Of a stretch of DNA of 27,163 bases, positions 2,228 through 22,887 are shown in pieces. A program made the translations under genes and the position numbers. The notes beneath the pieces are model-generated. The model had not been told where the DNA came from, searched no databases, and saw only the letters and a list, made by a program, of their open reading frames with translations. Location: the IMG/VR virus record IMGVR_UViG_2531839527_000008, one strand, 5' to 3'. Position 1 is the first letter of the stretch; every line of letters begins with the position of its first letter. Source of the DNA: a virus. Its lineage: Duplodnaviria > Heunggongvirae > Uroviricota > Caudoviricetes.

Positions 2228-2454
2228 CCAATAAAACCACATAAAAAACATATAATTATAATAAAAACAATTAGTTAATTTAATTTTTAATGCAGTGAAT
2301 TGCAATATTCTGCAACCTCCGCCGCCACTTTGCCGCCACTTAAAGCTTTATACCACACAGACTTTAGTATACCCGAGTGAAACGCTAACACATGAGGTAG
2401 TTGGAAAATTTCCGTATATGTTGTAATATTGATACGCATTATATGATTTTTACC

Positions 2455-2463
2455 TGATATAAT
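2455..2463 (+). promoter_or_regulatory. candidate extended -10 promoter element (TGaTATAAT) upstream of cargo ORF
   Basis: TG at 2455..2456, TATAAT at 2458..2463; no good -35; about 125 nt upstream of the GTG at 2590. Confidence 0.3.
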
Positions 2464-2589
2464 GTAATTATTAGCTTCAAAATTATTTTTGCACGAATCA
2501 GGTATTACCAAGTAGTTGTCAGTTTTTAAAAACCCAACATCCTAAAATTAGCATTGTTTTTTAACCACAAAACATCCACGGAGAAGAAC

Positions 2590-3399
2590 GTGTCAAAAAA
2601 GGATACAATCCAGATTATCGATATCAGGATGCAGAGACCAATCATAGCAAGAATAGAAGAAGAAAATTTAAATTTGACATTGCAAATGTCAGATAAAGCC
2701 ACATTATCTGGTGCGACAGTTAGTTTTTTCACCCCAAATAACGTTTCTATATTCTTATCCTCAGCAAAAAAAGAGCTCTCAAAATCCAATTCTATATATA
2801 AAAGTCTTTTTGGAAAAATACACAAAACCAAACATAAAAACTTTAAAATTTCCGACAAAGACCTGCCGAGACTCTATAATTACTTTGAATCAATTCAGAC
2901 GGCCATTATTTCTATGTATACTGCAATTGAGTCTTTTGCAAATATATGCATACCACATGATTATGTTTATGAAAAAAACAATGCCAAGGGAATCAAAGAA
3001 TCCTATAGCAAAGAGCTAATTGAGCGATATATACCAACAAGTGAAAAAATAGATAAAATCCTACCGTCTATTTTAAATTGTGATTCGCCTAAAGGTTCAA
3101 AACTATGGCAAGATTTTAAAAGCCTTGAGTCACTTAGAAATGACATAATTCACCCCAAGACAACAAAGAAAAACACAGAAACAAAAGAAGACTCATCTTT
3201 TTTATGCATTTTACTATCAGATGACTTTATAAAAAAAGTTTCCTGTGGATTTGATTTGGTATCTTATTTTTGCAAACAAGACACTACTCATAGTCTTTTC
3301 CCAATGGGTTTCGGTGAAATTGAACTTAAACCTGTCCCAATTAAAGCCGGTGACTTTGAAAAAGTTGATGATCATGATGAAATAGAATTACCATCATAA
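2590..3399 (+). CDS. AT-rich cargo protein with Rx4H motif (RNDIIH), putative HEPN-like RNase / abortive-infection-type protein
   Basis: Long ORF in AT-rich DNA; GTG start at 2590 preceded by GGAG 6 nt upstream (ORF-track longest form begins at TTG 2554); motif LESLRNDIIHPK encoded at 3136..3153; lies between attL and int. Confidence 0.55.
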   Translation: MSKKDTIQIIDIRMQRPIIARIEEENLNLTLQMSDKATLSGATVSFFTPNNVSIFLSSAKKELSKSNSIYKSLFGKIHKTKHKNFKISDKDLPRLYNYFESIQTAIISMYTAIESFANICIPHDYVYEKNNAKGIKESYSKELIERYIPTSEKIDKILPSILNCDSPKGSKLWQDFKSLESLRNDIIHPKTTKKNTETKEDSSFLCILLSDDFIKKVSCGFDLVSYFCKQDTTHSLFPMGFGEIELKPVPIKAGDFEKVDDHDEIELPS

Positions 3400-3400
3400 C

Positions 3401-3447
3401 AAAAAAACACAAACCATAAAGACGGCCATAGGTGGTCTTTATGGTTT
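3401..3447 (-). terminator. intrinsic terminator downstream of int (minus strand)
   Basis: Perfect 13-bp inverted repeat AAACCATAAAGAC/GTCTTTATGGTTT (3411..3423 and 3435..3447) with 11-nt loop; on the minus-strand RNA it is followed by a U7 run (A-run 3401..3407 on +). Confidence 0.6.
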
Positions 3448-3515
3448 ACAATAGACGCAGCCGTTATTAAATTTAAATCCAACAGCGTTAAAATAAACTA
3501 ACAATATACGCATAA

Positions 3516-20863: not shown

Positions 20864-21293
20864 CGCTGTACCCCAGCTCAGAAACAACCCCGATATGCTG
20901 CGTCTTTTCGCCGACAACGGGCATATCGATTCCCGACTGGCGAGCTCGCTGTCGTTTGAAAAGGTGTACGTGCTTAACATGGTGGTGACCGACTTTACCG
21001 GCGACCTCGATTTGATATTCGTGCCAGTGCAGGCGTGGCTGCGTGAACATCAGCCGGACATTATGACCACCGACGACGGGCGGGAAAAAGGATTCACCTG
21101 GATTATTGATATCAATAACGACGATTCGCTCGATATCAGTATCAGCCTGAGGCTCACCGAGCGCACGCTCGTCAAAGAGGTCGACGGCGCGCTGCATGTC
21201 AGCTATGCCCCAGAGCCGCCGCTGCCTGAGCCGGTGACGCGCCCGGTCGAGCTGTACGTTAATGGCGAACTGGTGAGTAAGTGGGATGAGTGA
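20826..21293 (+). CDS. R: tail completion protein (P2 gpR family)
   Basis: LRLFADNGHIDS..., FEKVYVLNMVVTDFTGDLDLIFVPVQAWLREHQPDIMTTDD..., ELYVNGELVSKWDE, matching remembered gpR. Confidence 0.82.
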   Translation: MQKHKSLRKALINAVPQLRNNPDMLRLFADNGHIDSRLASSLSFEKVYVLNMVVTDFTGDLDLIFVPVQAWLREHQPDIMTTDDGREKGFTWIIDINNDDSLDISISLRLTERTLVKEVDGALHVSYAPEPPLPEPVTRPVELYVNGELVSKWDE

Positions 21294-21741
21294 GTTAACC
21301 GCGCTACAGGAACGTCTTGCCGGTCTGATTGCCAGCCTGTCACCGGCGGCGCGTCGGCAAATGGCGGCTGACATTGCAAAAAAACTGCGCGCCAGTCAGC
21401 AACAGCGCATTAAGCGCCAGCAGGCACCTGACGGCACCCCGTATGCCGCCAGAAAGCGCCAGCCGGTGCGGAGCAAGAGAGGCCGTATCAGGCGCGAAAT
21501 GTTCGCCAAACTGCGCAGCACTAACCGCTTTATGAAAGCCAAAGGCAGCGACAGTGCGGCAGTGGTGGAGTTTACCGACAAGGTACAGCGCATGGCGCGG
21601 GGGCATCAGTACGGCCTCAAAGACCGGCCAAACCGCAACAGCCGGGATGTGCAGTACGAGGCACGCCCGTTGTTCGGTTTCACCCGGGACGATGAACTGC
21701 TTGTTGAGAAGCTAATAATCGGAGCTATTAGAAATGGTTAA
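21286..21741 (+). CDS. S: tail completion protein (P2 gpS family)
   Basis: 151 aa; LSPAARRQMAADIAKKLRASQQQRIKRQQAPDGTPYA pattern as in gpS. Confidence 0.8.
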   Translation: MSELTALQERLAGLIASLSPAARRQMAADIAKKLRASQQQRIKRQQAPDGTPYAARKRQPVRSKRGRIRREMFAKLRSTNRFMKAKGSDSAAVVEFTDKVQRMARGHQYGLKDRPNRNSRDVQYEARPLFGFTRDDELLVEKLIIGAIRNG

Positions 21742-21792
21742 TTAACAAAAGCATGCTAACTCTTGACAATTTGACAACTAGAGTGCACCCTA

Positions 21793-21845
21793 ACGCCAGT
21801 CAATAGAGTGCGACTGGCGTCAAGGAAGATTTTAATCTTTCTTTA
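21793..21845. terminator. tandem hairpins between convergent S and cargo gene (putative bidirectional terminator)
   Basis: 9-bp stem ACGCCAGTC/GACTGGCGT (21793..21801, 21812..21820) and AAGATT/AATCTT palindrome followed by TCTTT. Confidence 0.35.
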
Positions 21846-21858
21846 GTGGTTCGATTCC

Positions 21859-22734
21859 CTAGCCTCGTAAATATCGTTTAGTAAATTTCGTGTTTGGTCT
21901 GGATGATAGGATTTGTCTTTCTATTTCACTATCACAGTCTATATAGTCTAGTGTATTAGCTTCTATAAGTTTGTTCACGTCAATATTTTTTGCATCGATT
22001 ATGTTGGCATTTCTAAGGTTTGCATTGGTGTATTCCACTTTATCCAAATCACACTCTCTGAGTACGCAACTTTTCATTTCCGCATTGGAAAAATCCCCAC
22101 CATATAAATAGCAGCCTTCAAAAATAACACCGTTTAACTTTGAATCCTGAGCTTTAATATTTTTTATTTTACACTTTATAAATTTTACGTTTTTCATTTT
22201 GCTCTTGCTAATATTTAATGCCTGGATTGTACATCCAGTGAAAGAACAGTCTCTTATGTTAGATTTTTCCATATTTAACCCAGATAGTTCTGAGGTTTTA
22301 AAGTGTAAGTATTTAATGGTAAAAAGGTCACCCAACTCCATTCTGGGTATGTCTATATTGAAGACACCTTTATTGTTGAGCTGTCTTATTATTTTTATTT
22401 TTTGTATTTTCAAATCAACATTAACGTGCTTAGCTAAGTTTCCCAAATCCTCAAGAAGTTCATTAATCGTTTCTTTGTTTTGTCTTCTGTATTCAAAGTA
22501 ATAAAGGATGACACCTAATACAAAAAAATCCAAAATGGATGAATTTGCATTTATTAGGAACCCAGACAGGAATGAATCATTGTAATTACCATAGTGTATA
22601 GAGGCAAGTGTTACGCCAAATGCATATAAAATAAAAATAATAAACACGTGCTTCATTTTGCATAAGGATTGTATTATTGGTTTTATGGCATCAATTTTGT
22701 TCATTGCTGCAGCAGCGAAAGATTTAAAAGTCAT
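21859..22734 (-). CDS. AT-rich cargo membrane protein with C-terminal pentapeptide-repeat domain
   Basis: 291 aa; two hydrophobic helices near N-terminus (HVFIIFILYAFGVTLASI, FLSGFLINANSSILDFFVLGVILYYF); tandem A(N/D)LxN-like pentapeptides (…TNANLRNANIIDAKNIDVNKL…); occupies the S-V junction on the opposite strand. Confidence 0.6.
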   Translation of the reverse strand: MTFKSFAAAAMNKIDAIKPIIQSLCKMKHVFIIFILYAFGVTLASIHYGNYNDSFLSGFLINANSSILDFFVLGVILYYFEYRRQNKETINELLEDLGNLAKHVNVDLKIQKIKIIRQLNNKGVFNIDIPRMELGDLFTIKYLHFKTSELSGLNMEKSNIRDCSFTGCTIQALNISKSKMKNVKFIKCKIKNIKAQDSKLNGVIFEGCYLYGGDFSNAEMKSCVLRECDLDKVEYTNANLRNANIIDAKNIDVNKLIEANTLDYIDCDSEIERQILSSRPNTKFTKRYLRG

Positions 22735-22887
22735 TCTATTTTTAATGCATTCAGATTAAATGGGATTGATGATTTTTACGTGCCCAATGATGCGTGTCAA
22801 TCAGATCTTTGAAAGTGTCTTGCTGTGTGAGCCCCTTTCCAATCCCGAAGTTTTGTCTGCAATGAAAAGAAGCGGCATGCTTACATA

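Follow-up and report, generated by a model that had tools for sequence, protein, structure and literature searches.

The TO region, the Z region and orf30 are known as loci of horizontal transfer in P2-like phages (PMC3091744), and an AT-rich moron, neaT, has been described in a P2-like prophage (PMC3573123). Defence hotspots of P2 phages have been located between gpA and gpQ (PMC9122126, PMC13586616), between int and att, and downstream of gpL, in a tail-gene slot (PMC13586616). We compared these loci with a DNA stretch of 27,163 nucleotides (IMG/VR record IMGVR_UViG_2531839527_000008, called the window in the following), which holds the left 25 kb of a 186/PSP3-like prophage (Peduoviridae, Eganvirus-type) in the 3' end of rplS. 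An inspection of the letters alone (the sequence-only reading) had pointed to three AT-rich islands in this prophage, at the att-int, cos-Q and S-V loci (islands 1, 2 and 3), each with a single open reading frame (ORF) as cargo (cargos 1, 2 and 3), and had taken the mosaic pattern as support for independent horizontal acquisition. In our view it is probable that the islands are single-gene moron cassettes at P2 hotspots, which are intrinsically AT-rich, are shuffled by recombination and are most likely protective.

The P2 loci orf30, old/tin (in the TO region, between A, cos and Q) and Z/fun are like the three islands in that they belong to the same phage family and contain single-gene, AT-rich, variable cargo; the cargo genes themselves differ. 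Island 1 falls into the int-att hotspot and island 2 into the gpA-gpQ hotspot, with the difference that old/tin and most P2 cargo lie on the A side of cos, and island 2 on the Q side, which is filled in about one fifth of the relatives. Cargo 3 shares the S-V position of P2 orf30, antisense between the O-operon terminator and the pV activator site. Homology between cargo 3 and P2 Orf30 was tested and rejected, as no similarity was found.

AT-rich insertions at fixed positions

The islands stand out in base composition. Over positions 2228-3510, 11880-12980 and 21742-22887, the GC content was 0.318, 0.376 and 0.336, respectively, versus an average of 0.532 in the rest of the prophage (21.4 kb). 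Relative to island-free windows of the same size (mean 0.533, standard deviation 0.05, minimum 0.43), these values correspond to z-scores of -4.4, -3.1 and -4.0, and a 400-bp GC profile had three sharp troughs exactly at the islands. The contrast was strongest at third codon positions (GC3 of 0.27, 0.36 and 0.32 for cargos 1, 2 and 3, versus 0.55-0.74 for late genes), and the codon adaptation index against phage core genes was also lower for the cargos (0.49-0.53 versus 0.65-0.79). In both composition and codon usage, the cargos are unlike the flanking phage genes. The AT-richness that had been noticed by eye is therefore confirmed, whereas the description of the prophage as otherwise GC-rich holds only in relative terms: it fits the late genes (0.53-0.62), but the early region from int to A (0.42-0.55) is at or below the level of the host genes (0.48-0.51). 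None of the three stretches was found in the conserved core of relatives, and none had a GC content within the backbone range.

Comparison of the same loci across related prophages identified the stretches as insertions. Island boundaries were set against PSP3, in which all three slots are empty. In 186 and PSP3, the empty cos-Q slot measures about 175 bp and the empty S-V slot about 65 bp; the att-int slot of 186 holds orf69. The limits given in the sequence-only reading lie within about 110 bp of the PSP3-based boundaries and its locus names are right, as the attL core, cos, and the genes S and V lie where these names place them (Table 1). Its first island, however, included the P' arm of attP (2228-2338), which is not cargo because it is kept in island-free relatives.

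Among 75 relatives in IMG/VR, the S-V gap is empty in 49 (63-65 bp, GC 0.57-0.68) and filled in 26 (831-1760 bp, GC 0.32-0.42). The fillings come from at least 12 unrelated families, mostly single antisense genes, and include cargo-3-like, P2-orf30-like, FRG, DUF2971, UPF0489, HNH-like, AAA_22 and membrane proteins. The Q-cos gap was compared in 80 relatives. It has a length of 153-180 bp in about 62 of them, 375-489 bp in about 9, and 1.3-2.5 kb, with a GC content of 0.33-0.40, in 8; one further gap of 4.8 kb (GC 0.45) rests on a weaker cos match. Cargo 2 was present in only one of these gaps. The A side of cos was variable in nearly all 80 relatives. The islands thus have the properties of moron cassettes, namely a fixed slot that is filled or empty among close relatives and that accepts unrelated genes. 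Consensus sites resembling promoters precede cargos 2 and 3, and cargos 1 and 3 are followed by hairpins, in numbers that do not exceed those in shuffled sequences.

Island 1 starts right after the last arm-type repeat and ends within int, and leaves the attP core and arm untouched. It is missing from PKF8, 613R3 and PSP3. In island-free relatives, the integrase ends with ..GD(N/K)(M/V)AAEVA, encoded across the arm repeats. In the window, these ancestral last codons (..VAAEVA) are orphaned at 2310-2338, and an ORF on the minus strand (2287-2511) ends with ..KVAAEVA... The repeats are of the GCCGCCA type and were identified by analogy with the annotated arm-type sites of 186. Downstream of cargo 1, the hairpin at 3413-3445 is likely a bidirectional terminator. 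We also considered island 1 as a separate islet outside the prophage and rejected this possibility, because the attL core and the conserved P' arm lie to the left of the island; the orphaned int C-terminus, which places the insertion inside the phage, contradicts it as well.

For island 2, homology with 186 and PSP3 extends from cos through the P-Q terminator and resumes at the portal stop codon. Since homology breaks between these two points, cargo 2 is co-directional with P and Q and lies upstream of the terminator. In island 3, the AT-rich cassette proper (about 21742-22820) is flanked by the S stop codon and the late-promoter region of pV, which is retained; S itself also diverges from PSP3 in its last 15 codons. 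The hairpin at 21793-21820, a candidate terminator of the O operon, was seen in the sequence and missed by the terminator scan, since its loop is longer than 8 nt.

Table 1. Islands, cargo genes, attachment and cos sites, signals and neighbouring host genes in the window
Feature	Position	Strand	Properties
dgcN	413-1639		Host gene
yfiB	1655-2137		Host gene
attL core AGTTAAGACGCTC	2215..2227		3' end of host rplS; sole 13-mer common to both junctions
P' arm of attP	2228..2338		Arm-type repeats CCGCCGCCA / TTGCCGCCA at 2318-2338; 83-91% identity to PKF8, 613R3, PSP3
Island 1 (att-int)	2339..3549		1,211 bp, GC 0.32; between P' arm and int; replaces last 11 int codons
Cargo 1 (putative HEPN-type RNase)	2590..3399	+	WP_001394629.1, 269 aa; GTG start, GGAG ribosome-binding site
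Hairpin ACCATAAAGAC..GTCTTTATGGT	3413..3445		Between convergent cargo 1 and int; short version found by terminator scan
Integrase	3516..4556	-	Catalytic Tyr region kept; 11 new C-terminal residues (..CNGFKWKD) derived from island
cos site GGCGTGGCGGGGAAAGCAT	11664..11682	+	19 nt identical to positions 1-19 of 186 and PSP3
P-Q operon terminator	11831..11845	-	Equivalent of 186 tW; now downstream of cargo 2
Island 2 (cos-Q)	11851..12983		1,133 bp, GC 0.38; between portal stop codon and operon terminator, Q side of cos
Cargo 2 (putative zinc metallohydrolase)	11902..12906	-	WP_001394636.1, 334 aa; motifs HHELxHxHE, WSEYxAN
Sigma-70-like match TTGAAG-17-TATAGT	12925..12953	-	Upstream of cargo 2; consensus match, count not above shuffles
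Island 3 (S-V)	21696..22870		1,175 bp, GC 0.33; relative to PSP3
Hairpin ACGCCAGTC-N10-GACTGGCGT	21793..21820		9-bp stem, T-rich tail; between convergent S and cargo 3
Cargo 3 (pentapeptide-repeat protein)	21859..22734	-	WP_001394648.1, 291 aa; antisense to late genes
Sigma-70-like match TTGACA-17-AAAAAT	22772..22800	-	Upstream of cargo 3; 10/12, the region's best; consensus match only
V operon late-promoter region, retained	22821..22887	+	Aligns with S-V spacer of 186/PSP3 (TGTGTGA..); P2 pV activator site by analogy

Mosaicism, age and low GC content

Presence of the islands was counted over 5,426 complete E. coli genomes. Of these, 19 contain island 1, 26 contain island 2 and 4 contain island 3. 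All three occurred together in 4 genomes and islands 1 and 2 only in one, while 14 genomes had island 1 alone and about 21 had island 2 alone. The three islands assort independently among E. coli genomes, which agrees with the proposed independent acquisition; low GC content, on the other hand, tells neither how nor when a gene was acquired.

The mosaic is real, yet much of it has arisen because related prophages trade modules and alleles. In Ecol_545, the early arm is unchanged, every protein from cargo 1 to DinI having the same accession, but the late genes are different, nothing fills the Q-cos slot and the S-V slot is taken by another antisense gene. In 613R3, the backbone is 97% identical, island 1 is absent and cargo 2 is present, and the cargo-3 allele is only 53% identical. 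Island 1 is strictly linked to its int allele, which was found (at least 99% identical) in exactly the 19 island-bearing genomes. A further 55 genomes have an int allele with 80-90% identity, and those examined (PKF8 and similar) are without island 1. In total, an rplS-type integrase was detected in 74 of the 5,426 genomes.

The strong compositional contrast, together with the independent presence or absence of the islands, could also arise if each island were a recent and separate import from a low-GC donor, with a GC content not yet ameliorated. Between E. coli genomes, the copies of an island are 99.5-100% identical, a level that recent spread could explain, and neaT in another P2-like prophage was interpreted along these lines (PMC3573123). 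Nevertheless, we regard recent import as unlikely. Alleles of cargo 3 with 49-57% identity fill the same S-V slot in phages of Klebsiella, Enterobacter, Edwardsiella and E. coli. Their synonymous sites (pS) are saturated, with a nonsynonymous divergence (pN) of 0.30 and a dS of 0.14-0.6 for the flanking V gene, and still all of them have a GC content of 0.30-0.33, beside S and V genes at 0.50-0.60. For cargo 2 and the adjacent portal gene, the divergence from the PKF8 copies is about equal (dS 0.31 and 0.29), and the GC content of cargo 2 (0.377) has not risen.

Homologues in other hosts are also AT-rich, although the flanking DNA ranges from 0.42 to 0.64 GC. For cargo 1, the values are 0.33 in Serratia (flanks 0.60), 0.30 in Morganella and 0.41 in Simplicispira (flanks 0.64); for cargo 2, they are 0.36-0.37 in Shewanella and Kosakonia. 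No low-GC donor lineage was found among the homologues, and the named ones are nearly all from Proteobacteria, chiefly Enterobacterales. Finally, island 1 is tied to an int allele that is 14% diverged from the allele without the island, and so it is not a fresh insertion into an int allele of the PKF8 type. As low GC content persists through divergence and across hosts, AT-richness is a stable property of the cassette families and should not be read as an acquisition clock.

Substitution patterns indicate that all three cargos are under purifying selection, directly for cargo 1 (dN/dS 0.03-0.06) and cargo 2 (dN/dS 0.19, calculated with the PKF8 copy and not with an IMG/VR copy that has a frameshift pair), and for cargo 3 indirectly, from its low pN in relation to saturated pS. 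On this evidence the cargos are functional and old, with a low GC content that is maintained. In Enterobacteria, such low-GC DNA is a target of H-NS.

We propose that the moron cassettes occupy intergenic slots at the edges of transcription units, where an insertion would be harmless to the phage. Slot 1 follows directly on the attP P' arm, where int ends, slot 2 lies between the portal stop codon and the P-Q terminator, beside cos, and slot 3 separates the O...S operon from the late promoter of the V operon. Recombination between related prophages would shuffle the cassettes, and also whole phage arms, and would thereby generate the mosaic. The low GC content would be intrinsic and long-lived, and may be tied to silencing of the H-NS type and to expression in the lysogen.

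The cargo genes and their possible roles

All three cargos are non-structural genes, but the statement that they have no structural homologue was too strong, as HEPN signatures were found for cargo 1, a zinc-site signature (HExxH...E) for cargo 2, and cargo 3 is a genuine pentapeptide-repeat protein.

Cargo 1 is a putative HEPN-type RNase. It belongs to a small family (15 clusters), in which YTAxExxAN and RNxIIH were invariant between cargo 1 and 13 homologues. The latter motif corresponds to the HEPN Rx4H motif, and R183-N-D-I-I-H188 ends the helix 171-187 of the AlphaFold2 (AF2) model. The core of the model is helical, with a predicted local distance difference test score (pLDDT) of 90-94 over residues 90-180. 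A weak PADLOC match of cargo 1 was to RTasHEPN (E-value 1.3e-4, 20 bits), and its homologues matched HEPN_RiboL-PSP (5/13, best E-value 2.2e-4), HEPN_Cthe2314 (4/13) and HEPN_Apea (3/13), all below the cut-offs. The Foldseek matches of cargo 1 were generic helical bundles and were discarded. Searches of PDB sequences with the profiles A3, A4 and A9 gave chance-level matches only, and cargo 1 had no detectable relation to any chain.

HepS from the Gifsy-1 prophage, a single-protein abortive-infection nuclease of the HEPN type (PMC13043305), and other stand-alone HEPN defence proteins are similar to cargo 1, which is a prophage-encoded, partnerless single gene with an Rx4H motif and a helical core. 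However, HepS was absent from the 50 Foldseek matches listed for cargo 1, the weak profile matches of cargo 1 are to HEPN families other than that of HepS (RiboL-PSP, Cthe_2314, Apea and the PADLOC RT-associated HEPN), and the N-terminal residues of cargo 1 (about 50) have no assigned fold.

A homologue with 84% identity to cargo 1 is located in a P4-like satellite of Serratia, between delta and int, which is the P4 defence hotspot. This Serratia marcescens satellite (L178, 3499-7265) has the order 238-aa gene, delta, cargo, int, and appears to be without psu. Other homologues adjoin integrases or prophage ends. In Morganella (L175/L176, 6468-7605), the homologue lies beside a 118-aa gene, a RelA_SpoT-like gene (weak Pfam match) and a truncated integrase; the locus may be a small defence islet with a toxic module of the alarmone-synthetase type.

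For cargo 2, we predict a zinc metallohydrolase or metallopeptidase. The family is wide (353 clusters at 50% identity, nearly all of about 320 aa). In 55 family sequences, with identities down to 17%, E139 and H142 were invariant and H138, W173, E175 and Y176 nearly so. HExxH and a downstream glutamate ligand, as in zincins and gluzincins, are both present in cargo 2. The AF2 model is confident (pLDDT 90), and for its N-terminal alpha/beta half, built of a beta-sheet plus helix, the best Foldseek matches were AQ_1354/YbeY (probability 0.77) and Wss1 (0.69), both weak and without significance (E-values above 0.09). Cargo 2 resembles minimal zincin-like metallohydrolases (proteases of the Wss1/SprT type, metallo-RNases of the YbeY type and Pfam Peptidase_Mx1) in its HExxH motif on a long helix and a near-invariant glutamate 33 residues further on; its large C-terminal helical domain (about 160-313) has no counterpart in them. 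No Pfam or NCBIfam family was found with cargo 2 as query. Two of the 55 relatives weakly matched Peptidase_Mx1 (E-value 0.0025), and two relatives are fused to DUF2971. Pfam searches of the family at lax thresholds returned noise only (DUF4907, BART).

Cargo 3 is predicted to be a membrane-anchored pentapeptide-repeat protein of the DNA-mimic-like kind. Two N-terminal hydrophobic helices (about 27-46 and 58-78) are followed by a pentapeptide-repeat domain (about 140-260), whose tandem A(D/N)LXX repeats score above the Pfam gathering cut-offs (68.9 bits versus 38 for PF13599, Pentapeptide_4, and 47.9 versus 20.2 for PF00805). Pentapeptide proteins in PDB match cargo 3 with E-values down to 1.5e-13. 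The best NCBIfam match is HalA (NF051894, PDB 9nyi), the membrane ion-channel effector of the Hailong system (reviewed in PMC13434031); a Hailong-like pair has been found in P4 hotspots (PMC13586616). HalA and cargo 3 both combine transmembrane segments with a pentapeptide-repeat region; cargo 3 has its repeats on the C-terminal side of the hydrophobic helices. The remaining similarity is generic and common to Qnr, MfpA, HetL and PipB2. A gene for the HalB nucleotidyltransferase was found neither in island 3 nor in the same slot of the relatives examined, each of which contains a single gene.

Protection of the lysogen from other phages is the most likely role of the cargos, although for each of them individually we would put this at roughly an even chance. 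Cargo 1 would act by abortive infection through RNA cleavage, and cargo 2 would degrade a target protein of the phage or the host. For cargo 3, the site of action would be the membrane, in superinfection exclusion or as a HalA-like effector.

Several observations weigh against moron cassettes with a protective function. In PADLOC-DB v2, no cargo significantly matched a known defence component, and nothing at all was found for cargos 2 and 3. Foldseek searches against PDB returned no significant structural neighbour for cargo 2 and none with an E-value of 0.001 or lower for the AF2 model of cargo 1, which as a whole is of moderate confidence only (pLDDT 69.5). The HalA match of cargo 3 reaches 42 bits (E-value 6.7e-11), far from the NCBIfam cut-off of 250, so that cargo 3 is not a HalA equivalog. 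Promoter and terminator matches were no commoner than in shuffled sequences, and distant homologues of cargo 2 reside in ordinary chromosomal contexts or islets. Moreover, the cargo of P2 hotspots is not always defensive, as exemplified by the acyltransferase neaT (PMC3573123) and by partition systems and toxins (PMC9122126). The three cargo accessions do not appear among the entries in the listed part of the PMC9122126 supplement.

A more specific version of the protective role is tentative, and we hold it to be possible but short of probable: at least one cargo may be a new single-gene anti-phage system, with cargo 3 as the top candidate, or cargo 2 may found a defence-associated family of zinc metallohydrolases. 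Cargo 3 would then be a partnerless HalA-like membrane protein, and its DNA-mimic repeats would sense or block incoming phage DNA. Its family has stayed in the S-V slot of P2-like phages for so long that alleles have diverged to about 50% identity, and they are swapped between prophages that are otherwise 97% identical, as an arms race would predict.

Alternatively, the cargos could be lysogenic-conversion genes that aid the host in ways unrelated to phages, by virulence, envelope modification or stress tolerance. P2 moron positions do hold such genes (neaT, PMC3573123; cytolethal distending toxin and partition systems, PMC9122126), the island-bearing strains are mostly human isolates, some of them from diarrhoeal stool, and the membrane protein cargo 3 belongs to a class of pentapeptide-repeat proteins that includes the type III secretion effectors PipB and PipB2, and also Qnr. 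We doubt this explanation to about the same degree as recent import, since signatures such as HEPN and HExxH typify toxin and defence modules, the satellite homologue of cargo 1 occupies a P4 hotspot that is dominated by anti-phage systems (PMC9122126), and no cargo has a signal peptide or a secretion-system context. In addition, all three homologue contexts examined for the cargo-3 family were S-V slots of P2-like phages.

It is less likely still that the cargos serve the phage itself, in counter-defence, in the modulation of packaging or of the lysis-lysogeny decision, or in the exclusion of P4-type satellites. Because cargo 2 points the same way as P and Q and precedes their terminator, late transcription along with the packaging genes is expected for it, and, being next to cos, it forms the extreme end of the DNA that is packaged. 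A host protein involved in defence could be cut by a metallopeptidase. A few anti-defence genes are known from P2 phages, but they are rare (28 elements; PMC13586616). The lytic operons do not include cargos 1 and 3, which lie outside them or run antisense to them, and most close relatives (such as 186, PSP3 and SEN1) are viable without all three genes.

That the islands are inert or decaying remnants with no current function is highly improbable, despite the annotation of the cargos as 'hypothetical protein' and the frameshifted IMG/VR copy of cargo 2, because the ORFs are intact, the substitution patterns described above indicate constraint, and the catalytic-type motifs are invariant over wide families.

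The prophage, its surroundings and implications

The window differs from the chromosome of E. coli E1739 by 3 mismatches across its full length. From about position 2215 rightward it is a P2-family prophage, which runs past the window to about 35 kb of locus L003, where it meets rplS. The gene order is that of 186 and PSP3 (int, DUF2511, 186-type cI, cII, fil, A, tumA/DinI, cos, Q, P, followed by O, N, M, L, X, Y, K, lysB/C, R, S, V, W, J, I, H, G) and is shared with SEN1; the DNA identity to these three phages is 88-91%. PSP3, SEN1 and SW9 cover 80-81% of the query at 88-90% identity. The assignment to the 186/PSP3 type of the P2 family is based on this order and identity and on the 186-type CI, CII, Fil and DinI/Tum modules; a cos site of the P2/186 type beside the portal gene and an att site beside int are also present.

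The second copy of the 13-mer (attR) lies at 35007-35019 of L003, outside the window and beside an intact rplS. As the 13-mer encodes the last codons of ribosomal protein L19, the phage integrates in the 3' end of rplS and rebuilds the gene. The replacement ending supplied by the prophage is ERLN, followed by two stop codons. This integration site is different from the tRNA-Ile site of 186. Scans of the window for Rfam families and tRNAs gave no matches.

To the left of the prophage, an IS1 element at positions 1-320 truncates yfiR, of which only the last 34 codons are left, as an annotated pseudogene (322-423). The periplasmic protein YfiR represses DgcN/YfiN, a diguanylate cyclase encoded by the adjacent gene, and therefore c-di-GMP synthesis may be de-repressed in this strain. 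The gene is intact in most other genomes with the same prophage. Within the prophage, the longest ORF of the replication gene A starts at a TTG at 7849, and the RefSeq start is at 7942. A 61-aa 'hypothetical protein' of RefSeq (11639-11824, minus strand) covers cos and the conserved GC-rich DNA flanking it, and is probably not a gene.

The sequence-only reading was right in that all three of its loci are variable, but more such loci exist in the prophage. The DUF2511 gene between int and cI (4579-4917, minus strand) is a fourth, milder AT-rich accessory gene (GC3 0.32). Its product has an N-terminal hydrophobic stretch suggestive of export, and the gene is kept in PSP3 (orf28) and frameshifted in Ecol_545. 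A further variable segment is located on the A side of cos, in the classical TO region (11081-11539, GC 0.44). It contains a 64-aa ORF in the window, differs in PSP3, and is occupied by a 313-aa ORF in 613R3 and by a 223-aa gene and a DUF2188 gene in Ecol_545. The tail-fibre end (25219-27163, continued at 27337-28060 of L003) is variable against all reference phages. Here, two tail-fibre-assembly genes converge, accompanied by a truncated tail-fibre fragment and by a recombinase (invertase) pseudogene with a frameshift; the arrangement resembles what would be left of an invertible host-range segment at the Z/fun position.

That P2-like phages carry low-GC single-gene cassettes in fixed slots is established knowledge, and in this respect the islands add nothing conceptually new. 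Their practical value is that they flag three intact, constrained and uncharacterised genes at loci rich in anti-phage defence cargo. Of more general use is the conclusion that low GC content reflects the nature of the cassette gene pool and not recency. Both the Q side of cos and the att-int slot act as true insertion sites, although minor ones. Cargo 1 is common to a P2-type phage and a P4-satellite hotspot, which fits the recently described shuttling of cargo between P2 and P4, and the Serratia satellite illustrates how one cargo serves both a satellite and a phage of the helper type.

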